From: an uncultured Actinomycetes bacterium
GTDB lineage: Bacteria > Actinomycetota > Thermoleophilia > RBG-16-64-13
Direction of reading: 5' to 3'
Assembly: GCA_903873715.1 (NCBI GenBank)
Contig: CAIQPS010000168.1
Span: forward strand, 3,939-67,938
Length of the DNA: 64,000 bases
Shown here: one piece after another, positions 8,426 through 45,817 of the stretch
How positions within the stretch are numbered: the stretch's first letter is position 1
Layout of the letters: each line of letters opens with the position of its first letter
Position numbers and translations under genes: made by a program
The notes under the pieces: model-generated
Database searches by the model: none
What the model was told of the DNA's origin: nothing
What the model saw: only the letters and a program-made list of their open reading frames with translations

Positions 8426-10297
8426 ATGACAGAACCCCAGGACACGGACCTTCCTGCGGCACTCTCGCCGGGCGAGCCGCCGCTCCGCGCAGCGGCGGTG
8501 GTGCTCGCCGCGGGCTTCTCCTCCCGCATGGGCAGCCTCAAGCCGCTGCTTCCCCTTGGAGCGGCGACGGCACTGGAGCGGGTGGTGGGGTCTTTGCGCG
8601 AGGCCGGCATCCGAGACATCGTGGTGGTCACAGGCCACCAGGCAGAGTCGGTCACCCCGCTGATCGAACGCCTCGGCGCGATGCGCGCGCACAACGCGGG
8701 CTACGAGGCGGGGATGTTCTCGTCGGTGCGGACCGGAGTGGCCGCGCTGCCGGCGGATATGGCCGCCTTCTTCGTCCTGCCCGTCGATTGCCCCCTCGTC
8801 ACTCCCCAGGCGCTGCGCTCGGTGCTCGACCGCTTCGCAGCCGGCGATGCCGAAGTGGTGTATCCCACCTGTCTCGGCCGCCGCGGCCACCCGCCGCTGC
8901 TGTCGGCGCGGTACGCGGCCCCACTTCTGGCCGCCGATCCCGGCGGCAACCTGCAGGCCTTCCTCGCCACGAAGGGTGGCCGTGAGGCGGAGGCCGACGT
9001 GCGAGACCTCACCGTCCTCCTCGACATGGACACGCCGGAGGCCTACCAGGCCCTCGCCCACTTCGCCGGCGCCCTCGACGCTGCGCGGGACCGGGCGGCC
9101 GGAGGCTCGGGCACCGAGCCCTCCCTCACCGCCGACGATGCGCTCTTCCTGCTGGCCGCCGCCGAGACTCCCCGGAACGTGGTGCGGCACTGCCGGACCG
9201 CGGCCGCGGTCGGGGAAGCGGTCGCCGAAGCCTTGAAGGCGCACCTGCCCGCCCTCGACGTGGACCTCGTCCGCGCGGGCTGCCTGCTGCACGACATCGC
9301 CAGGCTCCTGCCCCATCACGCCCGCTTGGCCGCCGAGATCCTTGCCGACCTTGGTCTGCCCCGCCTTGCGCAGGTGGTGGGGGAGCACATGGTCATCGAC
9401 CCGGCGCTGCCGAAAGGCCCGGGCATCACCGAGGCCGAACTCGTCTACCTCGCCGACAAGACCGTCACCGAGGGCGAGGTCGTCGGGCTGGCCGAAAGGC
9501 AGGCCCGGACCATCCGCAAGATGAGACCGGATGCGCAGACGGCGGGCCACATCGGCGAGCGCATCGCCGAGGCCCGCACCATCGCCGGCAAGGTGTCGGC
9601 GGTCCTGGGGCGGCCGGTGGACGACCTGCTGGCCGAAGTCCGCCTCCCCCCGGAAGCGGTGCCGGCCACCATGCGCGTCTACCTGGTGAGGCACGCCCGT
9701 CCGGAAGGCCCCGAGGGCCGCCGGTTCCACGGGCAGGCGGACTCCATCCTCGGCGGCCCGGGCGAGCAGCAGGCCCACACCCTGGCCGGCAGGCTCATGG
9801 GGCTCACAGGCGGCGCCTGCTTCGACGCCATCTACTCCAGCGACCTCGCCCGGGCGCGCCGCACCGCGGAGATCGTCTCCGGTGACTGTGGGGGCCGGGT
9901 GCACGCGGAGCCCTGGCTGCGCGAGATCGACGCGGGCCTCTGGGAAGGCCTCACCTGGGACGAGGCTCGGGCGCTGACACCGGCCGAGCATGCGGCCAGG
10001 GAGGCGGACCTCGTGGGAACGCCGTTCCCCGGCGGGGAGAGCTTCAAGGACCTCCGAGACCGCGTGGTCCCCGGGTTCGAGGCGCTTCTGGCGGACGCGC
10101 TGTCGGCTGGCCACCGGCGGGTGCTGATCGTTGGGCACAAGGGAGTCAACAGGGTGCTCCTGGCCCACGTCCAGGGCCTCCCCCTAGCGGACGTGTTCGC
10201 GATCGAGCAGGACTATTGCGCGGTCACGCTCTTGAAGGTGGAGCGAACGGGAGACGGCGTAGGCGGACGCGGGCGCATCACGGTGCGCGGCTGCTGA
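8426..10297 (+). CDS. three-domain fusion: MocA/MobA-like nucleotidyltransferase + HD domain + histidine phosphatase (PGAM-like)
   Basis: N-terminal AAVVLAAGFSSRMGSLKPLLPLG ... VLPVDCPLV is MobA/MocA-like. The middle has LLHDIARL ... GEHM, HD-like. The C-terminal RVYLVRHARPEG ... LREIDAGLWEG ... IVGHKG is a histidine phosphatase. Single 623-aa frame with no internal stops. Confidence 0.75.
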   Translation: MTEPQDTDLPAALSPGEPPLRAAAVVLAAGFSSRMGSLKPLLPLGAATALERVVGSLREAGIRDIVVVTGHQAESVTPLIERLGAMRAHNAGYEAGMFSSVRTGVAALPADMAAFFVLPVDCPLVTPQALRSVLDRFAAGDAEVVYPTCLGRRGHPPLLSARYAAPLLAADPGGNLQAFLATKGGREAEADVRDLTVLLDMDTPEAYQALAHFAGALDAARDRAAGGSGTEPSLTADDALFLLAAAETPRNVVRHCRTAAAVGEAVAEALKAHLPALDVDLVRAGCLLHDIARLLPHHARLAAEILADLGLPRLAQVVGEHMVIDPALPKGPGITEAELVYLADKTVTEGEVVGLAERQARTIRKMRPDAQTAGHIGERIAEARTIAGKVSAVLGRPVDDLLAEVRLPPEAVPATMRVYLVRHARPEGPEGRRFHGQADSILGGPGEQQAHTLAGRLMGLTGGACFDAIYSSDLARARRTAEIVSGDCGGRVHAEPWLREIDAGLWEGLTWDEARALTPAEHAAREADLVGTPFPGGESFKDLRDRVVPGFEALLADALSAGHRRVLIVGHKGVNRVLLAHVQGLPLADVFAIEQDYCAVTLLKVERTGDGVGGRGRITVRGC

Positions 10298-11265: not shown

Positions 11266-11390
11266 ACCTCACCCCCGCCGGCCCGCGCTCGAGCGAGCGC
11301 ACGCGCCCACTATAGCGGACTGAAGCGTGGACGCAAGAGCCCTGGACCGTGGTAGATTCGGGCGAGGAAATCGATCGGAAGGGGGGCGTG

Positions 11391-12170
11391 ATGGGCCGCG
11401 TACAGGACAAGGTGGCTATCGTCACGGGAGGATCCACCGGGCTGGGCAGGGCCACAGCCGAACTGCTGGCGGCTGAGGGCGCTAAAGTGGTCATCGCCGA
11501 CGTACAGGACGGCCTGGGTTCGGCCGTCGCGCAGGATATCGCCGCCTCGGGCGGCGCGGCGCACTACTACCACATGGACGTCACCGCCGAAGCGGAGGTG
11601 GCCCAGGTCTGCGCCGACATCTTCGCCAAGTTGGGCAGCATCGACATCCTCGTGAACAACGCGGGCATCACCGGGGCCCCCAAGCCCACCCACGAGATAA
11701 CCGTCGAGGAATGGGACAAGGTGCTGAACGTCGATGCCAAAGGCGTCTTCCTGTGCACCAAGCACGCCGTCCCCTACATGAAGCAGAGCGGCGGGGGCAG
11801 CATCGTCAACATCTCCTCGGTCTACGGTATCGCCGGCGGCATGGACGTCCCGCCGCCGTTCCTCTATCACGCGGCCAAGGGCGCGGTCCGGGTGATGTCC
11901 AAGTCGGACGCCATCTGCTACGCCGCGGACAAGATCCGCGTGAACTCCATCCACCCCGGTTGGCTCTGGACCCCGATGCTGGAGAACGTGGGCAAGGATT
12001 CCACCGAGGGCCCGGAAGCGTTCCACGCCCGCATCCTCAGCCGGCTGCCTCTCGGGCACTACGGCGAGCCGCTGGACGTGGCATACGGCGTGCTCTACCT
12101 GGCGTGCGACGAGTCCAAGTTCGTCACCGGCACGGAGCTGGTGATCGACGGGGGGTATCTCGCCTGGTAG
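11391..12170 (+). CDS. short-chain dehydrogenase/reductase (SDR)
   Basis: VTGGSTGLGRA, NNAGI, YHAAK catalytic motif. ATG 11391 follows GGAAGGGGGG. Confidence 0.85.
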   Translation: MGRVQDKVAIVTGGSTGLGRATAELLAAEGAKVVIADVQDGLGSAVAQDIAASGGAAHYYHMDVTAEAEVAQVCADIFAKLGSIDILVNNAGITGAPKPTHEITVEEWDKVLNVDAKGVFLCTKHAVPYMKQSGGGSIVNISSVYGIAGGMDVPPPFLYHAAKGAVRVMSKSDAICYAADKIRVNSIHPGWLWTPMLENVGKDSTEGPEAFHARILSRLPLGHYGEPLDVAYGVLYLACDESKFVTGTELVIDGGYLAW

Positions 12171-12284: not shown

Positions 12285-15200
12285 TCAGGCCAGAGCCATC
12301 ACCGTCTTGTCTTCGGGCGCGCTCTGTCGCGCGGTCACACGGGCTGAGCGCAGCACTTCGGGGCGGACTTTCTCCACCTGGATAAGGCAGGAGTTGGCCG
12401 CCGTCGCGTGCGACTTCTCGATCTGCATGCGGCTGGGCGTGAGGATGTTCACGCAACCGCCCCGGTCGTCGGAGTGCCCCGGGACGCCCACCGGGTCGTA
12501 CACCGCCGACGACTCGTATGAGTGGATCAGGCCCGGGCGCACCCGCTCGGTGATGACCGCGGCGCAGAAGACGCCACCGCGGTCGTTGTAGAGGCGGATT
12601 ACGTCGTGCTGCTTGATGCCCCGCTCGGCGGCGTCGGCCGGGTTGATGCGGGCGATCCAGTAGTGGTAGCCGTCGATCTCGATGCGGTGGTCGGTCACGT
12701 CGTTGAGCGCGGCGCCTTTGCCGTCGTGGTGCGTGTGGAACGAGAAGCGCGGGTGCGGCGTGATGAGCTGCAGCGGGTACTTCTCGAACAACTCCGTAGC
12801 GTGCGGGCCCTCCCACGATTCGCGCCAGGTCATGATCGGCGGGCGCTCGGGATCGTCCGGGTCGAAGCGCTTGAGGCTGCTCGACTCGAACTCCAGGCGG
12901 CCGGTCTGGGTCTGCAAGCCGCGCTTCCACTCCTCTTTGTAGTCGCCAGGCAGAGGGCTGAGTTCCGGGACGTCCTTGAGCCGGTCCTCGGCGAACCAGT
13001 TGTACGAGACGGGGTCGCGGTTCTCCTCGGGCAGTGGCGGCACCACGTAGTAGCCCTTCCGGATGAACTCCTTCCAGGAGATCACGCGCGGCAGGTCGGT
13101 GGCTTCGAAGAGGCGGCGGCACCATTCGATCTCGGTGCTGCCCTCGGAGAAGGCGTTCCCGAGGCCGAGGCGCTCCGCCAACTGCAGGAAGATCTGGAAG
13201 TCCGGCTTGGATTCCCCGAGCGGCTCGATGCACTTGTGCTGCATCACGGCCACGCGGTGGTTGCTCTGCGTGAACGCGTGCTCCGCGTACCCGCCCGGGT
13301 TGGCGAACTCACCGATGTCGAAGCGCTCGAAGTTGGTGCAGGCCGGCAGGATGACGTCTGCGAACTTGGCCTCCCCTTCGAACCAGATGGACTGGTTCAC
13401 GACGAACTCCAGGTTCTCCGAGGAGTACATGCGGGCGTAGCGGTTGGTATCCACCATCGTCCCGATGTGGGATCCGCCGAACTTGTAGTACATCTTCACC
13501 TGGGAGTGGCCCGGCGCGGGATAGCTGAATTTCCCGAACTGCGCCTCGATGGTCTTGCCGTCGTTCATGTACGCCTCGGCCTTACCCTCGAGTATAGCTT
13601 CAGGGATACGCAGCCGCGGGATGGCCTGCTTCACGGGGTTCATGCTCACGAGCTGCGGCATCCGCTGATACATGTGCAGCGAGAGGCCGGTGGCATCGAG
13701 GTCGCCGGACATGCCGCCCTCGGCGTAGCCCGGGAAGTAGAAGCGGGTGTCGAGCGGGGCGCCCTGCTGCAGGCAGCCCATGTTGATGCCCGGCTTCCCG
13801 AGGCCCTGCATGGCCATGAGATACACCATCCCCCGGGCCCAGTCGGTCCCGGTAGCGGTGCGGCAGGCGCCGCCGAAGCCGACGTAGCCGCCCGGAGCCA
13901 GGTAGGTCTTCTTGCGGCCCCACTCGCGGGCCAGCGCGCGCACGTCCTTGGCGGGCACGCCGGTCTCGGCTTCCTGCCACTCGGGCGTCTTGGCGATGCC
14001 GTCGTCCTCGCCCAGCACGTACGCCTTCCAGGCGTCGAACCCGGAGGTGCGCTCGAACACGTACTTCTTGTCGTACAGGTTCTCGGTGATCCACACGTAG
14101 GCGATGGCCAGGATCATGGCGCTGTCGGTGCCCGGTTTGGGCGCCAGCCACTTCCCGCCCAGCCAGCCGGCGGTGTGGTTGAAGTACGGGTCGATGTGGA
14201 CCATCGGGATGCCCAACTCCTTGAGCCAGCGCCGGCGGACGGTCCCTTCCTGGGCGCCATACACGCCGCTCGTGGACTCCGGGTCGCTCGACCAGAACAC
14301 CACCATCTCGGCGTTCTTGAGCAGGTCCTCGACGGTGCTGAAGGTCTCGCCGCCGCCCAGGCGGGTGCTCTGGCCCCAGTGGTGCACGGCGCCCCAATAC
14401 CACCCCTCCCAGCTGTCCGGGTTGTGGGCGATGGGCGTCCAGCCGATGGAGTTGAAGAACCGGATGCGGGCCGACAGCCAATAGCCGATGGCGCCCCAGT
14501 TCTGATGGGAACCGGAGCCGTTCATGATGGCGCCGGGGCCGTGGTCGCGCTTCACGCGCTTGATCTCAGCAGCGACGATGTCGAGGGCCTCGTCCCAGCT
14601 GATGCGCTCGTAGCCGGAGATGCCGCGGTTCTGCGGGTTGCGCTCGCCGTTGGGGTCGAAGTCCACGCGTTTCATCGGATAGAGCAGCCGGTCCGGCGAG
14701 TAGATGAGCGACTTCCAGCTGAGGGTGTGCGGGCTCACCGTCGTCTTGCTGGGCGGGGTGAACTCCTTGCCCCGGGCCTTGATGGTCCACGGCTTGGCGT
14801 CTTGCTCGTCGAACTCGATGGGGGTCACGCGTACGATCTTGCCGTCCTTCACGTAGACGAACACCGGGCCGCCGTTGGAGTTGTTGGTGTAGCGGACGGT
14901 GCCGTCCTTCATCTTGATGCCGTACTCGTTGCCGGCGGACAGCATCAGGGTCATGGTGGTGGTGAACCAGGTGACGAGATGGTCGGTGCCGGCCACCTCG
15001 AGCTGGAACGTCTTGGCGGCGGAGAGGAACTCGAGCTGGTCGCGCTTGGGCCGCAGCACGCGCGCGGCCACCGAGGCGTCCTGGAACGTCATGACCACGT
15101 CGGCGTTCGGATGGATGCCGCGCCTGGACGTGACCTTGCCGTCCTGGAAGATGTAGTAGCGGGCCTGCGAGTTGTCGCGGATCCGGACCTGGGCCACCAG

Positions 15201-15320
15201 GTTCTCCTTGGCCAGCCAATCACGCACCTGCGGGAAGCGCCGCGACTGCACGCGCAGCGCCTGAGCGAGGCCCCAGGTGGTGACCGCGAACTGGACCTTG
15301 TGGATGAGATTCGCCGCCAT
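12285..15320 (-). CDS. molybdopterin (bis-MGD) enzyme large subunit, pyrogallol transhydroxylase / resorcinol hydroxylase family, with extra ~140-aa N-terminal SCP2-like domain
   Basis: From residue ~140 on there is block-by-block similarity to what I recall of Pelobacter acidigallici AthL: GGPVFVYVKDGKIVR, FTPP, YPMKRVDFDPNGERNPQNRG, YERISWDEA, NPDSWEGW, VFWSSDPE, ILPACTNFER, HPRFSFH, YNDRG, HSYES..YDP..DRGGC. There is no N-terminal Cys cluster and no Tat signal. The ATG overlaps the stop of the small subunit (ATGA at 15320-15322). Confidence 0.85.
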   Translation of the reverse strand: MAANLIHKVQFAVTTWGLAQALRVQSRRFPQVRDWLAKENLVAQVRIRDNSQARYYIFQDGKVTSRRGIHPNADVVMTFQDASVAARVLRPKRDQLEFLSAAKTFQLEVAGTDHLVTWFTTTMTLMLSAGNEYGIKMKDGTVRYTNNSNGGPVFVYVKDGKIVRVTPIEFDEQDAKPWTIKARGKEFTPPSKTTVSPHTLSWKSLIYSPDRLLYPMKRVDFDPNGERNPQNRGISGYERISWDEALDIVAAEIKRVKRDHGPGAIMNGSGSHQNWGAIGYWLSARIRFFNSIGWTPIAHNPDSWEGWYWGAVHHWGQSTRLGGGETFSTVEDLLKNAEMVVFWSSDPESTSGVYGAQEGTVRRRWLKELGIPMVHIDPYFNHTAGWLGGKWLAPKPGTDSAMILAIAYVWITENLYDKKYVFERTSGFDAWKAYVLGEDDGIAKTPEWQEAETGVPAKDVRALAREWGRKKTYLAPGGYVGFGGACRTATGTDWARGMVYLMAMQGLGKPGINMGCLQQGAPLDTRFYFPGYAEGGMSGDLDATGLSLHMYQRMPQLVSMNPVKQAIPRLRIPEAILEGKAEAYMNDGKTIEAQFGKFSYPAPGHSQVKMYYKFGGSHIGTMVDTNRYARMYSSENLEFVVNQSIWFEGEAKFADVILPACTNFERFDIGEFANPGGYAEHAFTQSNHRVAVMQHKCIEPLGESKPDFQIFLQLAERLGLGNAFSEGSTEIEWCRRLFEATDLPRVISWKEFIRKGYYVVPPLPEENRDPVSYNWFAEDRLKDVPELSPLPGDYKEEWKRGLQTQTGRLEFESSSLKRFDPDDPERPPIMTWRESWEGPHATELFEKYPLQLITPHPRFSFHTHHDGKGAALNDVTDHRIEIDGYHYWIARINPADAAERGIKQHDVIRLYNDRGGVFCAAVITERVRPGLIHSYESSAVYDPVGVPGHSDDRGGCVNILTPSRMQIEKSHATAANSCLIQVEKVRPEVLRSARVTARQSAPEDKTVMALA

Positions 15321-16204
15321 CAGCGCTCGCCTCCTACCATGATCGTGCCGAGGTTGACGCTCTCGCCCAGCTTCACGGCGATCCGGGCGGGACCGTGGCC
15401 GTTGGAGGCCACCTCCACCACGTACTCGCCCGATCCGGACTTGAGGCCGTCGAACTTGAAGTCGCCGAAGGCGTCGGTGAGGACCGTCTGTACGGTCTCC
15501 TCGCCGGCGCCCGCCGCGCCGTCTGCGGCACTGCCGGCCGCGTGCTTGAGGGTGGCCGCCCGCCCGGAGGCACAGTCGACGATCCCGTTGTGCTCCACCG
15601 CCACGCTCCCCGCGATGAAGCAGGACTCGAAGCGGGTCAGATTCTTGTAGCCCACCGCGGTGTGTTCCGGATCGCCCGGGTGCAGCGCCTCCACCCCATC
15701 GGCCGCCGCGCGCTTCGCGAACTCGTGATCGGTCTCCCAGACGAAGGACAGCGCGCCCGGACCGCAGGCCTGCACGCAGCGTGGCTTGGTCCAGCCGCTG
15801 TCAAGGAGATGGGCGCAGAGCGTGCACTTCTGGGCGACGCCGCTCTCCTCGCTCCACGCGATCATGCCGTAGGGGCAGGCCTTGACCAGTTCCTCGCGGC
15901 CGGCCGCCTTCTCCGGGTCGATGAGGACGATGCCGTCGGCGCGCTTGCCGATGGCGCCGTCCGACCGCGGCACGCACGGCGCGTCGGCGCAGTGCGTACA
16001 CATCGTGGGCCGGTAGGTCACGTCTATGAGCGGATACTGCCCGCGTTCCCGGTAGGGGATCTCTATCCAGCGCTCGCCGAGAGGTGACTGCGACTTGGCA
16101 TAGCCCGGCCAGTCGTTGCCGGCGTGTTCGTCTTTGCAGGCCAGGAAGCAGTTGTTACACCCCTGGCACAGAGCGACGTCGATGACGAGATGTGGCTTCT
16201 TCAC
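15320..16204 (-). CDS. Fe-S small subunit of transhydroxylase-type molybdoenzyme (ferredoxin domain + C-terminal beta-sandwich)
   Basis: Cys motifs CQGCNNCFLAC, CTHCADAPC, CPYG, CTLCAH...RCVQAC. The C-terminal ~90 aa (TDAFGDFKFDGLKSGSGEYVVEV) resembles a carboxypeptidase-regulatory/Ig-like domain, as in the P. acidigallici beta subunit. GTG start with GGGAG upstream. Confidence 0.85.
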   Translation of the reverse strand: MKKPHLVIDVALCQGCNNCFLACKDEHAGNDWPGYAKSQSPLGERWIEIPYRERGQYPLIDVTYRPTMCTHCADAPCVPRSDGAIGKRADGIVLIDPEKAAGREELVKACPYGMIAWSEESGVAQKCTLCAHLLDSGWTKPRCVQACGPGALSFVWETDHEFAKRAAADGVEALHPGDPEHTAVGYKNLTRFESCFIAGSVAVEHNGIVDCASGRAATLKHAAGSAADGAAGAGEETVQTVLTDAFGDFKFDGLKSGSGEYVVEVASNGHGPARIAVKLGESVNLGTIMVGGER

Positions 16205-16221: not shown

Positions 16222-16245
16222 AAACTACCGACCAGTAGGTAGCTT
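16222..16245. promoter_or_regulatory. 24-bp imperfect palindrome, operator candidate (site 1)
   Basis: AAACTACCGACCAGTAGGTAGCTT; 18/24 positions are self-complementary. It lies 18 bp upstream of the small-subunit start codon. Confidence 0.45.
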
Positions 16246-16284: not shown

Positions 16285-16308
16285 AAACTACCGATTGGTA
16301 GGTAGTTT
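16285..16308. promoter_or_regulatory. 24-bp imperfect palindrome, operator candidate (site 2)
   Basis: AAACTACCGATTGGTAGGTAGTTT; 20/24 identical to site 1, with centre-to-centre spacing of 63 bp. Confidence 0.45.
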
Positions 16309-16384: not shown

Positions 16385-17260
16385 TCAGTCGCGGCCGATG
16401 AGCTCCACCGCGGCCTGGATATGCGCCGGCGAAGTGCCGCAGCACCCGCCGATGAGCCGCGCCCCGGCACGCAGACACTCCTGCATACCGTTGGCGAAGT
16501 CGGCCGGCGCCAGATCGAACACCAGGTCGCCGTCCACCATCCGCCCTTTGCCGGCGTTGGCCTGAGCGATGATCGGCAGGTCGGTGGCTTCACGCATCAT
16601 GGCGACCAGTTGCGCCATCTCGAGCGGGTCCACGCCTCCGCAGTTCGCGCCGACCACCGTGGCGCCCGCCTCGGTGAGGCCCTCGGCGCATCGTTTGGCG
16701 GTGTCCCCCATGACGGTGCGGCCCTGGTTGTCGGAGGTGTTGAACGCGATGGAGGCGATAACCGGCAGATCGCAGGCCTCACGGATGGCCCGCACGGCGC
16801 AGACCGCCTCGCGCAGGTCGAACATGGTCTCGACTATGATGCCGTCCACTCCTCCCTCGGCCAGGATCGCGGCCTGCTCCTTGAAGGCAGCGAGGGCGTC
16901 CTCCTCGGGCAGCGTTCCGTAGGGCTTCAGCATCTTGCCGGTCGAGCCCATGTCGCCGAGGACGTAGCAGGCACCAGCAGCCGCTTCCTTGGCCAAACGG
17001 ACACCGGCGAGGTTCACCTCGCGCACATCCACCGCCACGTTGTGCGACTCGATGTTGGTGCGGTTCATCGTGAGCGTGTTGGTGATGAGCAGGTCCACTC
17101 CCGCCGCGACGTACCGTTTGTGCACGGTGAGCACGGCGTCCGGGTTGGTGATCGTGTTCTGCCCGCCCATCTCCAGACCCATCTGCCCGAGCTGGGTGCC
17201 CATGGCCCCGTCGAGGAAGATGGCCGTCCTGCTGCTGTTGAGAAGATCGATGATGCTCAT
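16385..17260 (-). CDS. homocysteine S-methyltransferase domain protein (stand-alone MetH/BHMT-like Hcy-binding module)
   Basis: LDGAMGT, VVGANCG and C-terminal GGCCGTSPAHI zinc-thiolate motifs of the S-methyl_trans fold; 291 aa. Confidence 0.8.
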   Translation of the reverse strand: MSIIDLLNSSRTAIFLDGAMGTQLGQMGLEMGGQNTITNPDAVLTVHKRYVAAGVDLLITNTLTMNRTNIESHNVAVDVREVNLAGVRLAKEAAAGACYVLGDMGSTGKMLKPYGTLPEEDALAAFKEQAAILAEGGVDGIIVETMFDLREAVCAVRAIREACDLPVIASIAFNTSDNQGRTVMGDTAKRCAEGLTEAGATVVGANCGGVDPLEMAQLVAMMREATDLPIIAQANAGKGRMVDGDLVFDLAPADFANGMQECLRAGARLIGGCCGTSPAHIQAAVELIGRD

Positions 17261-17951: not shown

Positions 17952-18620
17952 CTAGTGCCTGAAGCGGCAGGTCTCCTGCACGTCGCAGAACTCGCAGGGT
18001 GACCGGACCTCAGTTGATTCGTAGCCCGGTCCGATGCCCACCATCAGCGACGCCGACTTCTGGGGCACCAGGATCCCCGAGTCGGTGACCCGCACCCCGA
18101 CACTCTCGACTCCCAGCATCCGCCCTATGACGATCTGATCGGCGAGCGGCCACCCGGAAAGCTGGCCCGGGGCCAGTTCCGCGCTCACACCCCAGCCCCT
18201 TCGGGCGGCCTCTTCCTCGGCGAGACCATGAGCCTTGTGTATCAGCAGGCCCACACCGTAGACCCCGGCCGCGTCGAGCATGTAGGCATCCAGTGCCTTG
18301 CCCGCCGCCTGAAGGGCCCTGCTCTCCTCTTCTATGGCCGGCCCGACGGTCACCAGCCCGAGGAAGACCTCGACCGCCTCGTCCAGCAGGTCGGCATGCC
18401 GTCCGAGGCGGAACACCGCCTCCCCCACCTGGGCCTGGTGCTTCTCCAGGAGCTTCACCGGCAACCAGTCGTAGACGATGGCCGGGCGGACCAGCGGCCG
18501 CGCCCGCTCCAAGGCGGCCCGAGCCGCGCCCTGCATCGAGGGCCGCTTGAGCGCCCCGCCCTGCTCCTCGAAGAAGAGCTCCTCCTCCATGGGAAGCTCG
18601 AAACCGGTGAGGATCGTCAA
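17952..18620 (-). CDS. MetH activation-domain-like protein (vitamin B12-dependent methionine synthase activation region family), C-terminal Cys cluster
   Basis: Size, the GILVPQKSASLMVGIG segment and the C-terminal CEFCDVQETC resemble stand-alone Met_synt_B12-type proteins; this is from recall and only moderately sure. The proposed start is TTG 18620, preceded by GGAGGAG and overlapping the upstream stop as TTGA. Confidence 0.5.
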   Translation of the reverse strand: MTILTGFELPMEEELFFEEQGGALKRPSMQGAARAALERARPLVRPAIVYDWLPVKLLEKHQAQVGEAVFRLGRHADLLDEAVEVFLGLVTVGPAIEEESRALQAAGKALDAYMLDAAGVYGVGLLIHKAHGLAEEEAARRGWGVSAELAPGQLSGWPLADQIVIGRMLGVESVGVRVTDSGILVPQKSASLMVGIGPGYESTEVRSPCEFCDVQETCRFRH

Positions 18621-20326
18621 CGCTGCTCCTCCATCTGATCTGCGATCCACGCGTCCACCCGCTCCGCCAGGACGTCCAGCGGGAGCGCTCCCCCGTCGAG
18701 CAGGCGGTCGTGGAAGGCCCGGATGTCGAACCTGGAGCCCAACGTCGCCTCCGCCTTCTGGCGCAGACGGAGTATCTCCAACTCTCCCAGCTTGTAGGTG
18801 AGCGCCTGGGCGGGTATCACGATATAACGGTCGACCTCAGCCTGAAGGTCGGGCTCGTCCTCGTCGGAATGTGCCCGGAAATAGTCCAGCATCTGCTCGC
18901 GGGACCAGTGCATGTGATGCACTCCGGTGTCGAGCACCAGCCGCACAGCCCGTAGCAGCTCGTTGGAGAGCCGCCCGTAGTCCTGCTCCGCCGTCTCGTA
19001 GAAGCCGGCCTCCTTGCCCAGGCGCTCCGAATAGAGGGCCCAACCTTCGGTGTAGGCACCGTAGTAGCCGTGCTGCCGGAACGGGGGCAGCGGGGGCAGA
19101 CACTCCGCGATGGCCACCTGCAGATGGTGCCCCGGCACCCCTTCGTGGTACGCGACGGCCTCCACACCTATGAGCGAGCGCTTCTCGTAGTCGCCGGTGT
19201 TCACGTACACCACCCCAGGGCGCGTGCCGTCCGGAGTCCCCGAGTGGTACTCGGCCGCAGCCGCTTCCTTCTCGCGGTACTTCTGGACGGGCCGCACATC
19301 CAGGGGGATGCACGGGAGCAGCCCGAACATCTCAGGCAACCGCGCTTCCATCTGCCCGATGTACCGTTTCTGCAGATCGATGAGCTGCTGCGGCGACGAG
19401 GCGAAGTACTTCTTGTCGGTCTTGAGCGCCTCTCGCATGGCGCCGAGGTCCGCGTATCCCAGCCGGGTGGCGATGGCCGCCTGCTCGGCCTCTATCCGGG
19501 CCACCTCTTGGAGGCCGAGCTCGTGTATCTCGTCCGGGTCCATGTCGGTGGTGGTGAGGTAGCGGATGAGGAACCGGTAGCGGCGCTCCCCGTCGGGAAG
19601 GGACCAGGCGCCGAGTTCCGTCCGGCCTTGGGGCGCGTATTCCTCGCGGATGAACTCCATGAGCTTCAGGTACGCGGGTCTGACGTGCTCGTCCACCACC
19701 GCGACGATATCGGCGCAGAGGCTCTCGCGGTCGGCCGGCTCGAACGTCGCCGGGATCTCGGCGGCCGGGCGGCCGAAGACGTTGTCCAACCCCGCGGGCT
19801 CTGCGATATTCCCGCACTGCTCGACCGTCTTCTCCAGCAGATAGCGCGGCTGCACCAGTCCGTCTCTGACGCCCTGCCGCATCAGATCCATCATCTGGTC
19901 GAGCACGCGGGGCAAGCCGCGCAGCCTGGCGAGGTAGTTCTCGTAGTCCTTGACGGTCGCGAAGGGCATGTAGGTGACGAACTGGGCGAGCAGCAGGTGC
20001 AGTCCGTCCAACTGGTCCACCGGCATCTCGAAGCCCTTGAACTCCAGGTCCTCGAGAGTCTCCTTGAGGTCCCGGAGCATCAGGCGATGGTCGAGGCCTT
20101 CCTGTTCGGGGAACCCGGTCGGATCGACTGCCTCAAAACGGGCGAGCCAGGCGCCGGCATCGCGCTTGTGCTGCTCCATGTGCTCCAGGGAGATGTCGCT
20201 CCAGAGGTGATCGTAGCGGTGGTCGCCGATCATGGTTGCGAACTCCGGGGATTCCCGCAGGTCGTGTTCCCACTTCTCGGCCACCAGGGCCCGGAGCTGT
20301 GCGCGTCGCTGTTCTAGTGTGTCCAT
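18617..20326 (-). CDS. DUF885 family protein (metallopeptidase-like HExxGH)
   Basis: HEGVPGHHLQ motif and overall DUF885-like layout. Start set at ATG 20326 (MDTLEQRRAQL); the 184 upstream codons of the track ORF are R/G/P filler. Confidence 0.8.
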   Translation of the reverse strand: MDTLEQRRAQLRALVAEKWEHDLRESPEFATMIGDHRYDHLWSDISLEHMEQHKRDAGAWLARFEAVDPTGFPEQEGLDHRLMLRDLKETLEDLEFKGFEMPVDQLDGLHLLLAQFVTYMPFATVKDYENYLARLRGLPRVLDQMMDLMRQGVRDGLVQPRYLLEKTVEQCGNIAEPAGLDNVFGRPAAEIPATFEPADRESLCADIVAVVDEHVRPAYLKLMEFIREEYAPQGRTELGAWSLPDGERRYRFLIRYLTTTDMDPDEIHELGLQEVARIEAEQAAIATRLGYADLGAMREALKTDKKYFASSPQQLIDLQKRYIGQMEARLPEMFGLLPCIPLDVRPVQKYREKEAAAAEYHSGTPDGTRPGVVYVNTGDYEKRSLIGVEAVAYHEGVPGHHLQVAIAECLPPLPPFRQHGYYGAYTEGWALYSERLGKEAGFYETAEQDYGRLSNELLRAVRLVLDTGVHHMHWSREQMLDYFRAHSDEDEPDLQAEVDRYIVIPAQALTYKLGELEILRLRQKAEATLGSRFDIRAFHDRLLDGGALPLDVLAERVDAWIADQMEEQR

Positions 20327-39024: not shown

Positions 39025-40593
39025 CTATAAGCCGGCGGCGTGCCGCCCCGCTATCCAGGCGAACGTGAAGGCGTGGCCGATCCCGCTGCCTTCTATCTGT
39101 GGCGGATAGACCATCCCGTAGAAGCTGCCGGCGTTGTTGCCCACCGCGTACAGACCGGGGATGACCCGGCCCTTCTTGTCGAGCACCTTCATCTCGGCGT
39201 TGACCTTCACGCCTCCGCGCGTGCCGGTGATGGCCGCACCGATGCCGGCCGCGTAGAACGGCGGCGTGTCGATGGGCTGCATCCAGACAGGTTCCTTGAG
39301 ACAGTCGTCGTCGTGACCCTTGGCGCACAACTCGTTGTAGCGGGCGACCGTCGCGAGCAGGTTCTCGAGCGGCACGTCGATCTTCGCCGCGAGCTCCTCG
39401 AGGCTGTCGGCGCGCACCGTGACGCCTTCGCGTAGGTCTATCTCCAGTTGCTCCGGGGTGTTCCGCGACGCCGGGGTCTTCTCCGGGATCATCGGGAACT
39501 TCGTCTGCCAGGCACCGTCCCACAGGGCCCAGACCCGGCCCTCGGGCATGCCGAGGGCGGCCACCGCGTTCTGCTGGAACGGCAGGTTCTCGCTGGCGTA
39601 GCGGTAGCCGGCGATGTCCACGTAGAGCATGGGCATCGACGCGACGGCCGGGCACCACCACCAGTCCATGTAGAGCGCGTAGAACGGGTCGTCGGGGTGC
39701 ATGTTCCGGCCGGTGATGGTCTGCCCGGGGAACACGTCGCCGGCCACGATCTCGTCCATGTCGGCACCGGCCCAGATTGCCATCTTGTGGCCGTCGCCGG
39801 TGCAGTACTTGTTGGAGAAGTTGTTGACGTTCTTGGCGAGATGGGGGCAGTAGACCGACACCATCTCCTCGTCGTTGATGAAGTCGCCGGCGGCCAGGAT
39901 GACGCCCTTGGCGGCCGTGACCTTCAGGTAGTCGCCGTTCGCGTCGCGGGCGATGACGCCGGTCACGCGGCCGGACGCGTCGCGGACGAGTTGCTCGGCG
40001 GTGGTGTTGTAGTGGTAGACGGCGCCACATTCCTGAGCGTGCTGCACCATGGGCGCCATCCAGTCGACGTTCTCGCCCTCCTCGAAGGTCTTGCCCATCC
40101 GGTGGAGCACGCAGTACTCGTTCCAGAACTGGTTGGGACGTACGAGCGACCGCTCGAGGCCGGCGCCGGTGATGCCGCCGGTGTCCACCGACCGCACTTC
40201 CACGCCTTTGTCGGCCAGGATGTCGGTGAGCCAATCGGCGACTTCGGCGCTGTGGCGCAGCCAGAGAGCAGTGAGCGGCAAGCGGCCCTGGAAGGCCATC
40301 GTCGAGCCCCAGGTGTCGAGCATGATCCGCTCGCTCAACTCCTGCGAAAGCTCGACCCCCACCGCTTTCTGCGCTTTGGTGCCGAACGCGGCGAACCCGC
40401 CGGTCCGATGGGTCCCGAACGTCGGGCCCTTCTCGAGCACCCGCACGCTGGCCCCCATCTCGGCGGCTTTCATGGCCGCGGGGGTGCCGGAGATACCGGC
40501 GCCGACGACCACCACGTCGCAGGCCACAGTCTCCGCGATGGCGGAGTCGGGGATGGGCTCGGGGGCTATCTCGAACGAATGGGGTCCGCGCAC
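39025..40593 (-). CDS. FAD-dependent oxidoreductase, fumarate reductase / KstD-type flavoprotein family
   Basis: DVVVVGAGISGTPAA, ILAAGDF, GLYAVGNNAG. Start set to GTG 40593, 7 nt after GGAGG; the track start 40626 is also a GTG. Confidence 0.8.
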   Translation of the reverse strand: MRGPHSFEIAPEPIPDSAIAETVACDVVVVGAGISGTPAAMKAAEMGASVRVLEKGPTFGTHRTGGFAAFGTKAQKAVGVELSQELSERIMLDTWGSTMAFQGRLPLTALWLRHSAEVADWLTDILADKGVEVRSVDTGGITGAGLERSLVRPNQFWNEYCVLHRMGKTFEEGENVDWMAPMVQHAQECGAVYHYNTTAEQLVRDASGRVTGVIARDANGDYLKVTAAKGVILAAGDFINDEEMVSVYCPHLAKNVNNFSNKYCTGDGHKMAIWAGADMDEIVAGDVFPGQTITGRNMHPDDPFYALYMDWWWCPAVASMPMLYVDIAGYRYASENLPFQQNAVAALGMPEGRVWALWDGAWQTKFPMIPEKTPASRNTPEQLEIDLREGVTVRADSLEELAAKIDVPLENLLATVARYNELCAKGHDDDCLKEPVWMQPIDTPPFYAAGIGAAITGTRGGVKVNAEMKVLDKKGRVIPGLYAVGNNAGSFYGMVYPPQIEGSGIGHAFTFAWIAGRHAAGL

Positions 40594-40635
40594 CAGGTCA
40601 CCTCCAGGTCGTCGGCCGGCTCGCACAGTCGGCCG

Positions 40636-41469
40636 TCAGGCCACCTTGCCTTCCATCTCCTTGTACAACTGCGGCAGGATGCGGCCCAGGTTGGCGAACT
40701 CCTGGACGTCGTGCAGGAACAGGCCCTGGACGGCCTCCTCGGGGATGCGCATGCCCGGGGGCAGCATCAGCACGGGCTTCTTGTCGACGATCTGGTAACC
40801 CACCCAGAAGCGGTTACGCACCTCGATGCCCTCGTCGGTCTTGCGGACCAGGTGGACGAACGCCACCGGCAGGCCGGGGCCGTCCTTGGGATCGTCCACG
40901 CCGCGGGCCATCACGTTGGCCGCAGCCAGCGCCTCGGCGTACGGCGGCCGGTAGGCGTCCATGTCGAAGCCGAACTCTTCGGGCGTCAGGAAGGTGATGT
41001 CCACGGCGTTGAAGATGCCCCCGCCGATGTCCTCCACCACGTGATGGGTGAGGCCCTGGAACTTCTGAGTGAGCGGCGTGGCGGGGTCGAGCACCTTCGC
41101 GCGGGCGTCGGGGTCGAGCCGGGCCGACACGTGCATCTCCGGATACCAGAGCTTGTAGCGGAGGTCCTCCAGACCGTGCCAGGCGAACCACCAGTCGATC
41201 ATCTCGGGGGTGGCGCCTTTCATGGGATGGCGGAGGGCCACGCAGCCGCTGCCGTCCGGCATGACGCAGTAGCCGTTCTCGCCGGTGGTGTAGCCGGGTC
41301 TGAGCAGGTCGTTCGCGTCGTGGATGTCGTCGGCCTTGGCCGGGTCGAGCGGCTTGAGGTCCTTGAGCATCTCGGCGTGATGCGGCGCCGGCGGGGCCGA
41401 CGGCAGGTAGTAGTACTTGGCGTACGGCTGGGCCTTCTCGGCCTCGGTGAGCTCTATGCGTTCGGCCAT
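40636..41469 (-). CDS. DAPG hydrolase / phloretin hydrolase family protein (C-C hydrolase of acylphloroglucinols)
   Basis: 277 aa. It carries MIDWWFAWH, VHLVRKTDEGIEVRNRFWVG and C-terminal LHDVQEFANLGRILPQLY (H and E four residues apart). From recall these match PhlG/Phy family blocks and zinc ligands. Confidence 0.65.
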   Translation of the reverse strand: MAERIELTEAEKAQPYAKYYYLPSAPPAPHHAEMLKDLKPLDPAKADDIHDANDLLRPGYTTGENGYCVMPDGSGCVALRHPMKGATPEMIDWWFAWHGLEDLRYKLWYPEMHVSARLDPDARAKVLDPATPLTQKFQGLTHHVVEDIGGGIFNAVDITFLTPEEFGFDMDAYRPPYAEALAAANVMARGVDDPKDGPGLPVAFVHLVRKTDEGIEVRNRFWVGYQIVDKKPVLMLPPGMRIPEEAVQGLFLHDVQEFANLGRILPQLYKEMEGKVA

Positions 41470-41482
41470 CTCGGTCCCTCCG

Positions 41483-42154
41483 CTAGACGATGTAGTCGGT
41501 GGACGGGTCGTACGTGTCGTGCGGCGCGGGCGGCACCGGCACCAGTTCCATCACCGCGTTCGGCGAGTACATCCACACGTAGGAGGACTTCCGGTTCGGC
41601 TTCCACTCGTCCGGCAGACCGGGCGGGAAGATGTCGCCGATGTCCCCGGGATCGCCGGCCGGCGGCGCCGTCCACGGCACCTCGAACGGCGTGATGATGT
41701 TCAGGTAGACGTGCAGGTTGCGGATCTTCCAGCCGTCGGCCTCTTTGATGAAGTCGCAGCCGTAGGTGCCCCACACCCACATGGCGGTGAGCTTGCCGCC
41801 GAGCACCCGGGCCTCGTGGCCGGGCGACATCCACACACCCTTGGCGGTCTTGCCGTCCTTGGCCACCTCGATCACCGGGGTGGCGAGCATGTGCTGCATC
41901 ATCTGCCCTTCGATGGGCACGCCTATCTTGGACGTCCAGTTGTGGAAGCCGTGGAAGCAGCGGTACCCCGCATCCATGCCGTCCCACACGCCCAGCGGGC
42001 CGATCTCCACCTTCTGCGGCACCGTCTTGGCGAACAACTCCACCGTCTCGGTGAACATGTTGGCCGTGGTCAGGTACTCGTACATGCCCATGAGGTTGGT
42101 GATCTCATGGACGTCGTTGAGCTTACGGACCAACGCGCCCAGATCTTCAGACAT
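41483..42154 (-). CDS. NTF2-like (SnoaL_4-type) protein with C-terminal extension
   Basis: Paralogue of 22831-23532 (ATPVIEVAKDGKTAKGVWMSPG, MWVWGTYGCDFIKEADGWK). Confidence 0.6.
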   Translation of the reverse strand: MSEDLGALVRKLNDVHEITNLMGMYEYLTTANMFTETVELFAKTVPQKVEIGPLGVWDGMDAGYRCFHGFHNWTSKIGVPIEGQMMQHMLATPVIEVAKDGKTAKGVWMSPGHEARVLGGKLTAMWVWGTYGCDFIKEADGWKIRNLHVYLNIITPFEVPWTAPPAGDPGDIGDIFPPGLPDEWKPNRKSSYVWMYSPNAVMELVPVPPAPHDTYDPSTDYIV

Positions 42155-42187
42155 CTCGCTCTCCTTCTCTTAGCAGCTCCGCCGACC

Positions 42188-43033
42188 TCAGGCCTTCTCG
42201 AGGGCGACCGCCGGCAGCGTCAGGCTGGCGGCCGTCGGCGCGGCTTTGCGCTCCACCGGCTTGTAGCCGGCGGCTTGGATGGCCACGGTGTACTCGGCGC
42301 CCGGCTCCAGCTTGTCCACGAGGAAGTCGCCGTAGTTGTTGGTCACGGCCGTCGCGACCGCGGCGCCGTCCTTGGAGATGGTCACTTCGCAACCCTCGGC
42401 GCAGTCGCCGTTGTCGGCGAAGTAGGCGCTGCCGGCCACGAAGACCTTGGTCCAGCGGTACATGTTCTTGTAGTAGACCCGGGGCGTGGTGCCCAGTTCC
42501 GGCTTGCTGACCTCGAGACCGTCGGCGGCCACGCGGGCGGCCATCTCGGCGTCTTCGGCCATGACGAACTGCATGGCTCCGGTCGGGCACGCCTGGGAGC
42601 AGCGGGGCTGGGTCCATCCCTGGTCCACCAGGTGCGCGCAACCGGTGCACTTCTGGGCCACGCCGGCGTCGGCGTTCCAGGAGATGGCGCCGTAGGGGCA
42701 GGAATCCACGAGAGCCTCGTTCCCCTTGGCCTTCACCGGGTCGATGATGACGATCCCGTCCTCACGCTTGTAGATGGCGCCGGCGCTCGCATCCACACAG
42801 GGAGCGGCGTCGCAGTGCATGCATATGCCGGGCTTGTGGACCACCTGGATCTGCGGGAACTGGCCGCGCTCCTTGCGCTCGATCTCGAGCCAGCGGGCGC
42901 CTTCCCACGGCTGGGCCACGGAGAACGGCGCCCAGTCGTTGCCGGTGAACTCGTCCTTGTCGGCCATGAAGCAGCAGTTGCAGTCGTTGCAGAGGGCCAG
43001 GTCGATGACCATGTTCCATTTCTTGGCCATCAC
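42188..43033 (-). CDS. Fe-S small subunit of transhydroxylase-type molybdoenzyme
   Basis: CNDCNCCFMA, CMHCDAAPC, CPYG, CTGCAH...RCSQAC. KPELGTTPRVYYKNMYRW closely matches the block I recall from the P. acidigallici beta subunit. C-terminal beta-sandwich (NNYGDFLVDKLEPGAEYTV). The start overlaps the large-subunit stop (ATGA). Confidence 0.85.
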   Translation of the reverse strand: MMAKKWNMVIDLALCNDCNCCFMADKDEFTGNDWAPFSVAQPWEGARWLEIERKERGQFPQIQVVHKPGICMHCDAAPCVDASAGAIYKREDGIVIIDPVKAKGNEALVDSCPYGAISWNADAGVAQKCTGCAHLVDQGWTQPRCSQACPTGAMQFVMAEDAEMAARVAADGLEVSKPELGTTPRVYYKNMYRWTKVFVAGSAYFADNGDCAEGCEVTISKDGAAVATAVTNNYGDFLVDKLEPGAEYTVAIQAAGYKPVERKAAPTAASLTLPAVALEKA

Positions 43034-45639: not shown

Positions 45640-45685
45640 CAGCTGTCCCTCCCTGATCGATGCCGCCGCAAACCGGCCTCAGCGT

Positions 45686-45712
45686 AACTAACTGAGCATT
45701 AGGTAGCAACTT
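45686..45712. promoter_or_regulatory. operator-like motif related to the 16.2-kb sites
   Basis: AACTAACTGAGCATTAGGTAGCAACTT shares AACTA.C...TAGGTAGC..CTT with site 1 at 16222. It lies in the divergent region between the molybdoenzyme operon and the TetR-type gene. The symmetry is weak. Confidence 0.25.
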
Positions 45713-45817
45713 AACGTACAATCAGTATGGTGTCAATCGGCGGCCCGGCTTGTAGTAGAGTAGGAGCGGCCGCGGCCGGTGCCCACCGGCCGGCAGGGTG
45801 ACCGAGGAGGAGCGGGA

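Follow-up and report, generated by a model that had tools for sequence, protein, structure and literature searches.

Introduction

The pyrogallol-phloroglucinol transhydroxylase of Pelobacter converts pyrogallol to phloroglucinol with 1,2,3,5-tetrahydroxybenzene as cosubstrate, and carries three [4Fe-4S] clusters. In the large subunit, Arg153 is said to bind the substrate and Ser175, Asp174, His144, Tyr404 and Tyr560 reportedly have roles of their own, Ser175 being the serine that ligates the molybdenum. Mechanistic thinking on the family rests on the single crystal structure of this enzyme. Here we describe a relative encoded in a 64,000-nucleotide stretch of contig CAIQPS010000168.1 from an uncultured Actinomycetes bacterium (the window, at its full length), in which one of two transhydroxylase-type gene pairs specifies a large subunit of 1011 amino acids that carries, ahead of its bis-MGD (molybdopterin guanine dinucleotide) catalytic part, an N-terminal domain with a predicted sterol carrier protein 2 (SCP2) fold. 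This accessory domain is real, widespread and apparently undescribed, and it sits on a known enzyme; its role is unproven.

SCP2-like domains occur as parts of several other enzymes and accessory proteins. Those of alkylsulfatases recruit alkyl substrates, that of UbiJ binds polyprenyl quinone intermediates, and the SCP2-like auxiliary domains of the sugar O-methyltransferases MycE and SpnK also build oligomers. Among molybdenum enzymes, resorcinol hydroxylase and DbhLS fall together with the transhydroxylase in one branch, RhL/PgtL, of the Ser-ligated MopB enzymes (PMC10100899), and a gene cluster of Clostridium scatologenes encodes phloroglucinol reductase (PGR), dihydrophloroglucinol cyclohydrolase (DPGC), a dehydrogenase (TfD) and triacetate lyase (TAL) (PMC10470551). 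Transhydroxylase-type genes (pgthAB, 'pyrogallol hydroxytransferase') mark anaerobic polyphenol turnover in surveys of peat, sediment, gut and ocean, and recent surveys that use pgthAB as a marker leave the N-terminal domain unmentioned.

A long large subunit encoded in one frame

The open reading frame (ORF) table gave the sizes of the four genes, and their opposite order at the two loci, exactly as an earlier sequence-only reading of the window had listed them. The features of the long pair, with the short pair as comparator, are as follows:

12285-15320, minus strand: gene for the long-form large (alpha, Mo-bisMGD) subunit, 1011 amino acids
15320-16204, minus strand: gene for the small (beta) subunit, 294 amino acids, GTG start
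15330-15335, minus strand: Shine-Dalgarno sequence AGGAGG, 9 nucleotides 5' of the large-subunit ATG, within the end of the small-subunit gene
14925-15320, minus strand: N-terminal domain of predicted SCP2 fold, residues 1-132, from AlphaFold2 (AF2), Foldseek and conservation
14901-14924, minus strand: linker YGIKMKDG, residues 133-140, from the last SCP2-like helix to the first catalytic strand; contains Met137
14706-14870, minus strand: AhtL-like first domain, residues 151-205 (PF21423, E 6.6e-32)
13170-14690, minus strand: Molybdopterin oxidoreductase domain, residues 211-717 (PF00384, E 7.1e-34)
14478-14480, minus strand: codon of Trp281, equivalent of Pelobacter Arg153, the pocket substitution marking long forms
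14400-14423, minus strand: NPDSWEGW motif, residues 300-307, in which D302/S303 correspond to Pelobacter D174/S175
12399-12773, minus strand: Molybdopterin dinucleotide-binding domain (Molydop_binding), residues 850-974 (PF01568, E 1.3e-14)
43030-45639, minus strand: gene for the large subunit of the short, Pelobacter-type pair, 869 amino acids, keeping Arg153
42188-43033, minus strand: gene for the small subunit of the short pair, 281 amino acids

Pfam finds the AhtL-like first domain, Molybdopterin and Molydop_binding in both large subunits, offset by about 137 residues in the long one, which becomes similar to the short paralogue from G140/T141 onwards. The two small subunits match Fer4_11 and end in a part that is carboxypeptidase-regulatory-like, a beta-sandwich in the 294-residue one (Fer4_11 E 1.2e-22; CarboxypepD_reg E 1.8e-05, under the Pfam cut-off), which is 50% identical to the small subunit beside the long form of a close relative, locus L004. 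The junction between the small-subunit stop and the large-subunit start had been read as ATGA; it is in fact TGATG, GCTGATGGCG, with the TGA at 15322-15320 and the ATG at 15320-15318 sharing one base, and the two genes are predicted to be translationally coupled.

The ORF at 12285-15320 on the minus strand encodes one polypeptide made up of the extension and the bis-MGD catalytic subunit. As the sequence-only reading had stated, the extension precedes the paralogue homology in the same frame with no intervening stop, and its codon-position composition is indistinguishable from that of the remaining gene, with GC contents at first, second and third codon positions (GC1/GC2/GC3) of 0.62/0.42/0.96 for residues 1-137 (GC3 0.956) against 0.60/0.45/0.93 for the rest (GC3 0.935). 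The extension is kept in frame in more than 200 orthologues; in P0001, at 90% identity, the junction of N-terminal domain and catalytic part is read through uninterrupted. The 1011-residue protein is already in NCBI/ENA, and its 90% cluster counts 25 proteins, most members being 986-1038 residues long, with two shorter fragments (588 and 591 residues) among the 15 members listed.

Long spurious open frames are common in high-GC genomes, and the Pelobacter protein begins at the equivalent of about residue 138, both of which would suit a true start at Met137 preceded by an untranslated frame that is open by chance in GC-rich DNA. This explanation is nevertheless essentially refuted. Third-position GC stays at coding level across the extension, and AGGAGG precedes the first ATG, whereas inspection of the sequence 5' of Met137 revealed no Shine-Dalgarno-like site comparable to it. 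Met137 is itself poorly conserved, being Met in only 37% of relatives (97 representatives), with G134 and G140 conserved around it; and the domain is retained in frame across phyla and confidently folded by AF2.

A word-indexed search with residues 1-140 returned four proteins, three of them resembling separate ORFs of about 120-135 residues. A stand-alone gene for the domain was rejected, the contigs being long-read assemblies, syntenic with the window and full of frameshifts. In one of them, L001 (63% identity), the reading frame is lost precisely where 'VTWF' meets the linker, whose sequence, 'LSVGNRYGVKMGDGVVRY', resumes in the next frame. Because the contigs are ridden with frameshifts and the linker continues in the adjacent frame, we regard the separate ORFs as assembly errors and not as split genes.

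The extension has a predicted SCP2 fold

The extension had been proposed to follow an SCP2 sterol-carrier pattern, and structure prediction bears this out. AF2 with a four-sequence alignment gave an unusable model, with a predicted local distance difference test score (pLDDT) of 51; the model used here, of residues 1-132 with a 58-sequence alignment, has a pLDDT of 86.2 and a predicted template modelling (pTM) score of 0.79. It contains helices 2-28 and 30-36, strands 41-47, 53-59, 62-67 and 75-79, helices 82-88 and 95-103, strand 107-111 and helix 113-132, that is, the SCP2 order of two helices, four strands, helices, strand and helix, with a predicted five-stranded sheet under the helices. 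Linker residues 134-140 have a pLDDT below 50.

Searched against the Protein Data Bank (PDB) with Foldseek, the model gave 34 matches at E<=1e-3, and ranks 1-36 were all SCP2-fold proteins, with probability 1.0 and template modelling (TM) scores, target-normalised, of up to 0.69. The best was UbiJ-SCP2 (6h6p, E 6.6e-7, target-normalised TM 0.68), and the others included C-terminal domains of alkylsulfatases, archaeal and Thermus SCP2-like proteins, and mammalian, yeast and insect SCP2.

Sequence comparisons point the same way, below every curated threshold. Residues 1-132 have no Pfam match at E<=1, neither to SCP2 or its clan relatives nor to any other family, and none of these families reaches its gathering threshold; Pfam and NCBIfam are both without a model of this domain. 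Across the family, Pfam SCP2 (PF02036) is weakly matched by 10 of 42 members (best E 0.0013) and Alkyl_sulf_C by 3 of 42, and P0128 scores 16.7 bits against Pfam SCP2, where the cut-off is 21.3. The family profile met an insect SCP2-like protein in the PDB at E 0.9 over positions 40-120, and hhalign placed it on human SCP2 (an approximate sequence) in the expected register at E 0.013. These signals are weak but consistent, and membership of the SCP2 superfamily is supported by the predicted fold. We hold the two-part architecture and the modelled SCP2 fold of the extension to be highly probable.

A profile search of 1.84 billion cluster representatives yielded 562 relatives of the domain, 281 of them at E<=1e-10, and in those long enough the transhydroxylase catalytic domain follows directly. 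In 97 non-redundant long forms (<70% mutual identity), K103 is invariant, R54, G61 and G111 are conserved at 99%, Q44, D49, S65, A101 and W118 exceed 90%, and G68 is also near-invariant; conserved aromatic positions are F11, F32, F56, F58, F79, F105 and F119. A different partner appears in P0144 (L084, 159-1433), a complete 424-residue ORF on a metagenomic contig of only 1.6 kb, in which the domain precedes an NAD_binding_2 dehydrogenase of the 6-phosphogluconate-dehydrogenase type; P0128 likewise has it at the N-terminus of an NAD_binding_2 dehydrogenase. This fusion looks genuine, and it suggests that the domain may be a portable module.

Several other candidates were discarded. Apparent fusions in P0116 (the domain with a PAS-kinase), P0050 and P0152 were rejected as chimeras or frameshift products, and a twin-arginine translocation (Tat) signal at 'SRRF' (residues 26-29) was rejected as well, no hydrophobic h-region following it and the segment being modelled as helix with pLDDT >85.

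Catalytic core and substrate pocket

Residues 141-984 of the long form align with residues 4-866 of the Pelobacter large subunit (4v4c_A) at 1036 bits and about 55% identity, whereas dimethyl sulfoxide (DMSO) and trimethylamine N-oxide (TMAO) reductases among the PDB sequences score at most 251 bits. The short paralogue is 59% identical to the Pelobacter subunit and 55% to the long form. Pfam reports no Molybdop_Fe4S4 match in the long form and hence no N-terminal Fe-S motif. The NPDSWEGW motif and the SSH/GSH histidine, singled out earlier as shared by the two paralogues, do occur in both: the motif aligns with Pelobacter N172-W179, including D174 and S175, and the histidine of 'GSGSHQ'/'SSHQ' with H144. 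The long form thus has H272, D302, S303, Y532 and Y678 in place of H144, D174, S175, Y404 and Y560. Across 201 long forms, numbered by the 4v4c alignment, the pocket is composed as follows:

H144: conserved in 201/201
D174: conserved in 199/201
S175: conserved in 201/201
Y404: conserved in 201/201
Y560: conserved in 195/201
R548: conserved in 201/201
R153: W in 113, Y in 83, F in 4, L in 1 and R in 0 of 201
H154: Leu or Ile
W354: Phe, Leu or His

In the window long form the last three positions are W281, L282 and F482. Arg153 is retained in the window short paralogue and in Pelobacter, and the long forms of plasmids, Dehalobacter and Moorella obey the same rule as the rest. Judged from the alignments, the catalytic part is clearly a member of the transhydroxylase family within the Ser-ligated DMSO-reductase/MopB superfamily, except at Arg153, and presence of the N-terminal domain appears to go with a less polar pocket, the loss of Arg153 co-occurring with it strictly.

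This coupling bears on whether the domain could be purely structural, serving folding, stability, oligomerisation or cofactor shielding and binding no ligand. Such a role would fit its faster evolution, since median identity to the window protein over the 97 long forms is 37% in the domain against 68% in the core, and the oligomer-building domains of MycE and SpnK offer a precedent. A scaffold alone would, however, leave unexplained the perfect correlation of the domain with the pocket substitution, its near-invariant polar residues and aromatic-rich core, and its presence on an unrelated NAD-binding dehydrogenase (P0144), which suggests a function that travels with it. We therefore rate a purely structural role as quite improbable.

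Distribution and phylogeny of the long forms

The sequence-only reading had proposed looking for other molybdopterin large subunits with this N-terminal domain; hundreds were found, in many phyla. A scan of one genome per GTDB species by full-length alignment gave at least 509 loci with a relative, of which the best 80 were examined. These match the query from about residue 2-65 to about 984, most beginning within the first 30 residues, and in 80 of 80 the two parts lie in a single frame, so that the stop between them that had been named as an argument against the fusion occurs in none. They come, among others, from Actinomycetota including Thermoleophilia, Chloroflexota, Desulfobacterota, Alpha-, Beta- and Gammaproteobacteria, and Firmicutes (Sporomusa, Peptococcaceae and Parasporobacterium paucivorans DSM 15970). 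In a collection of 5.8 billion proteins, the best 120 of 5364 matches were all long (970-1025 residues, 95-99% query coverage) and included proteins of the cultured Dehalobacter sp. DCM and Moorella sulfitireducens, the latter with three long forms. These proteins go by no more specific names than 'molybdopterin-dependent oxidoreductase', 'TMAO reductase' or 'pyrogallol hydroxytransferase large subunit', with their N-terminus free of domain annotation.

In PLSDB, 9 of 9 family genes are long, on megaplasmids of Ensifer, Rhizobium, Burkholderia, Paraburkholderia, Cupriavidus, Salipiger and Sinorhizobium. An apparent short form on plasmid pCB3126_1 of Sinorhizobium terangae (L092, 7058-9001) was rejected as such, being a long form interrupted by an IS110-like transposase that sits precisely at the boundary of SCP2-like domain and catalytic part; the split gene consists of a 165-residue ORF for the domain, 1.45 kb upstream, and an 855-residue remainder.

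Neighbour-joining analysis of the catalytic part placed the 44 non-redundant long forms in one monophyletic clade and left Pelobacter, the window short paralogue and five other short forms outside it; the short forms sampled are few (n=7) and the long forms biased towards the query. The tree points to a single acquisition of the SCP2-like domain. Long forms may also be stacked with paralogues: L009 (3573-11524) has two long pairs in tandem, and in Moorella sulfitireducens (L086, 9001-20967) a long pair and a further transhydroxylase-type large subunit flank phloroglucinol-pathway genes.

Gene order and gene context

Small-then-large order was confined to the window and the actinobacterial loci closely related to it, L001-L004. 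Of the 76 GTDB loci with an identified small-subunit gene, all except one have the large-then-small order. In L005 (2900-9517) a short-form large, a small and a long-form large gene follow one another, and in L008 and L048 a short pair lies a few kb upstream of the long form, which no small-subunit gene adjoins. The order in the window is a lineage-specific rearrangement without obvious functional message.

Directly upstream of the long-form large and small genes, Dehalobacter sp. DCM carries genes for URO-D, CoA transferase, cupin, SDR, 3-hydroxyacyl-CoA dehydrogenase (3HCDH), cyclase, BKACE and thiolase, and in Moorella 3HCDH, BKACE, SDR and cupin genes adjoin the long pair. Because these are the same families as in the Clostridium scatologenes cluster (PMC10470551), we link these neighbourhoods to the phloroglucinol pathway. 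With the Dehalobacter proteins as queries, and within 5 kb of the long form, the reductase-type SDR (>=185 bits) and the cyclase each occurred in 10/80 GTDB loci, 3-hydroxyacyl-CoA dehydrogenase in 7/80 and BKACE in 5/80; the loci with pathway families include L004, L005, L008 and L048, closest relatives of the window. On these comparisons, a phloroglucinol-forming reaction is somewhat favoured for the subclade of the window protein.

Other members of the clade lie in other surroundings. On four proteobacterial plasmids, from Ensifer canadensis, Burkholderia stagnalis, Paraburkholderia sp. PGU19 and Salipiger abyssi (L088-L091), the long pair is accompanied by OmpW or FadL-type outer-membrane channels (4/4) and acyl-CoA synthetase (2/4), and also by VOC-family and FAH-family (fumarylacetoacetate hydrolase) proteins and TetR regulators. 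These aerobic surroundings are unlike the phloroglucinol cluster and suggest a different substrate, possibly a hydrophobic one. In three Clostridia, Parasporobacterium paucivorans and metagenome-assembled genomes of Oscillospiraceae and Family XIII (L076, 2804-10783; L079, 4928-12947; L063, 4937-12949), the long pair is followed by a gene of about 145 codons, a polyprenyl synthetase gene and HdrC/B/A-like genes, with overlapping stops and starts, apparently in the same operon; L076 has in addition an ABC1/UbiB-type kinase and a diacylglycerol-kinase-like gene upstream. With at least three gene contexts, the long-form clade is probably heterogeneous in function.

A bulky or lipophilic phenolic substrate had been suggested for the window protein from the outset. 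In this alternative, the SCP2-like domain would bind the alkyl or polyprenyl tail of a lipophilic phenol and present its ring to the molybdenum, the substrates being phenolic lipids, such as an alkylresorcinol, an acylphloroglucinol or a prenylated quinol precursor, and not free pyrogallol. Some indirect support exists: the best structural match is UbiJ-SCP2, the pocket changes in long forms (Arg153 to Trp/Tyr, His154 to Leu/Ile, Trp354 to Phe/Leu/His) lower its polarity, the plasmid loci carry OmpW/FadL channels and acyl-CoA synthetase, and three Clostridia place a polyprenyl synthetase gene in the apparent operon. In the protein's own subclade, however, the neighbours belong to the phloroglucinol pathway, which acts on unsubstituted small phenols and thus on small hydrophilic substrates; the near-invariant polar residues R54, K103, D49, Q44 and S65 are atypical of a generic lipid cavity; and the window has no prenyltransferase and no ubiquinone or menaquinone (ubi/men) genes near the long form. 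The suggestion thus retains some force elsewhere in the clade, and as an account of the window protein we consider it unlikely. A role in quinone biosynthesis, prompted by the polyprenyl-synthetase/HdrCBA operon, was set aside as limited to 3 of 80 loci.

A further alternative makes the domain a membrane-association or quinone-coupling module of an acceptor-dependent hydroxylase of the resorcinol-hydroxylase type, with electrons passing from the Fe-S subunit to quinone. Resorcinol hydroxylase reportedly associates with the membrane, with no transmembrane helix predicted in it; 21 of 97 long forms have a strongly hydrophobic N-terminal helix (19-residue Kyte-Doolittle mean >1.6), and the aerobic VOC-/FAH-family contexts would fit ring cleavage of a hydroxylated product. 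Yet the median hydrophobicity of that helix, 1.15, is below the transmembrane range, its pLDDT of 85-92, like that of the remaining domain, suggests packing into the domain over a free anchor, and long forms of fermenters and acetogens stand beside a redox-neutral phloroglucinol pathway with no further electron-transfer partner encoded there. This, too, we regard as a poor candidate, about on a par with a purely structural role.

Regulatory elements and neighbouring genes

Upstream of the small-subunit GTG lie two operator-like palindromes of the form ACTACC-N8-GGTAG(T/C), 63 bp apart:

16224-16243, no strand assigned: first palindrome
16287-16306, no strand assigned: second palindrome

The pattern has only these two matches in the window against a chance expectation of 0.6, and two or more matches arose in 12 of 100 shuffles, which makes the count weak by itself; the tandem placement upstream of a two-gene operon is what makes the pair notable. 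The palindromes, in a 180-bp intergenic region, are the probable promoter/operator of the operon. No matching palindrome lies upstream of the second (short-pair) operon, and no regulator gene adjoins those of the long pair.

About 2 kb from the molybdoenzyme operon, 8426-10297 (plus strand) encodes a 623-residue fusion of a MobA-like NTP transferase with HD and histidine phosphatase domains. The guanine dinucleotide form of the cofactor is the product of MobA-type enzymes, and this protein may be a dedicated maturation factor for the molybdenum enzyme. A homocysteine S-methyltransferase-type gene (16385-17260) lies directly upstream of the long-pair operon, a URO-D-type gene is found at 57334-58689, and L001 has B12-binding and URO-D genes (13580-15564) near its long form; these methyl-transfer genes hint at O-demethylation of methoxylated aromatics feeding the pathway. 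At 17952-18650 a Cys-rich protein of 232 residues has no Pfam match.

The short pair lies in an apparent flavonoid/phloretin island (39025-47916) that comprises its large and small subunit genes, an FAD_binding_2 oxidoreductase (39025-40626), a DAPG/phloretin-hydrolase-family protein (40636-41469; PF18089, E 1.5e-70), a SnoaL-like protein (41483-42154), a divergent TetR+HTH_17 regulator and an MFS transporter. An FAD_binding_2 oxidoreductase together with a SnoaL_4-like protein occurs twice in the window (21375-22850/22831-23532 and 39025-40626/41483-42154), which suggests a repeated two-protein module in an aromatic-catabolism region.

Discussion

The explanation we prefer, and hold to be rather likely as a whole, is that the window encodes the Mo-bisMGD large subunit of a pyrogallol-phloroglucinol-transhydroxylase-type enzyme, co-produced with its Fe-S small subunit from a two-gene operon, to which an SCP2-fold domain of about 130 residues would have been added once, N-terminally and through a linker of about 8-10 residues, in what is now a widespread long-form clade. 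In this subclade the enzyme would form phloroglucinol from a pyrogallol-type substrate, and the product would then pass through the reductase, cyclohydrolase, dehydrogenase and lyase pathway. The SCP2-like domain would act as an accessory ligand-binding or capping module for the aromatic substrate or cosubstrate. We propose this ligand-handling role tentatively, as a conceivable one that falls a little short of probable, because of what SCP2-fold domains do in alkylsulfatases, UbiJ and MycE/SpnK, and because the aromatic-rich core holds an invariant Arg and Lys and the domain co-occurs strictly with loss of Arg153.

In a more specific and more speculative form, which we think doubtful, the domain would be a built-in ligand holder capping the substrate funnel. 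It would keep the labile 1,2,3,5-tetrahydroxybenzene between turnovers, or it would insert Arg54 or Lys103 to stand in for the missing Arg153; alkyl- or prenyl-phenols may instead be what it delivers in some subclades, for an O2-independent, Mo-dependent hydroxylation of phenolic lipids. Were this so, long forms would be self-sufficient and would suit oxic or dilute settings like those of soil Proteobacteria and marine Rhodospirillales, and the Pelobacter enzyme of the crystal structure would be a stripped-down form, atypical of the family.

Several points weigh against the preferred explanation, beyond the small and biased samples behind the tree. In the window itself there are no genes for a cyclase, 3HCDH or BKACE. 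The SDR at 11349-12170 is only moderately similar to the Dehalobacter reductase-type SDR (104 bits), and assignment of the window SDR genes as phloroglucinol reductase is unsupported, none being among the top PDB matches of the neighbouring SDR. In subunits of the DMSO-reductase family the N-terminus sits close to the Fe-S partner and not necessarily at the substrate funnel, and the model covers the SCP2-like domain alone. The Pelobacter enzyme works without the domain. Finally, because contexts vary across the clade, one function for all long forms is unlikely.

The sequence-only reading had also supposed that an SCP2-type domain on a bis-MGD enzyme was undescribed. That stands in so far as no Pfam or NCBIfam model covers the domain and no paper found in the open-access literature searched ties SCP2 to the transhydroxylase family or to DMSO-reductase-type enzymes; the domain is not, however, peculiar to the second pair of the window, being the mark of a large clade. 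Within the SCP2 clan it is a candidate for a new Pfam family, and it offers experiments a handle on substrate range, on localisation and on how the cosubstrate is handled. Because of the extra domain, the changed pocket and the three or more gene contexts, the annotation 'pyrogallol to phloroglucinol' may be wrong for part of the clade, and the Pelobacter structure, which lacks the domain, is unrepresentative of the long forms.

Comparison with known systems

The nearest known enzyme, the Pelobacter transhydroxylase, aligns end to end with the catalytic part of the window protein, has the same Pfam architecture and shares the equivalents of Ser175, Asp174, His144, Tyr404 and Tyr560, as well as a 4Fe-4S dicluster small subunit with a C-terminal beta-sandwich or barrel and the lack of both a Tat signal and an N-terminal Fe-S motif. 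The window protein differs in about 137 additional N-terminal residues of predicted SCP2 fold, in Trp, Leu and Phe for Arg153, His154 and Trp354, in its small-then-large gene order and in its separate clade in the neighbour-joining tree. The two-subunit resorcinol hydroxylase RhLS/RehLS of Aromatoleum anaerobium and the 3,5-dihydroxybenzoate hydroxylase DbhLS of Thauera aromatica AR-1 likewise act on polyphenols; unlike the transhydroxylase, they are net oxidative hydroxylases that require an electron acceptor.

For the domain itself, the best structural match is the SCP2 domain of UbiJ (6H6P/6H6O/6H6N, with UbiT-type relatives), at 21-23% identity over about 116 columns. UbiJ, however, is a separate accessory protein of ubiquinone synthesis, whereas the window domain is fused to a molybdenum enzyme with no ubi genes nearby, and sequence profiles fail to connect the two. 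The alkylsulfatases SdsA1 (2CG2), Pisa1 (2YHE/4AXH) and YjcS (4PDX) resemble the long form in joining an SCP2-fold module to a catalytic domain (Foldseek E 5e-6 to 4e-4), although theirs is C-terminal to a metallo-beta-lactamase-type hydrolase. The sugar O-methyltransferases MycE and SpnK (3SSM, 8IAA) share with it the N-terminal position of the auxiliary domain (Foldseek ranks 37-49, E 3e-3 to 0.1), at a much weaker similarity (TM 0.3-0.38) and with another catalytic partner.

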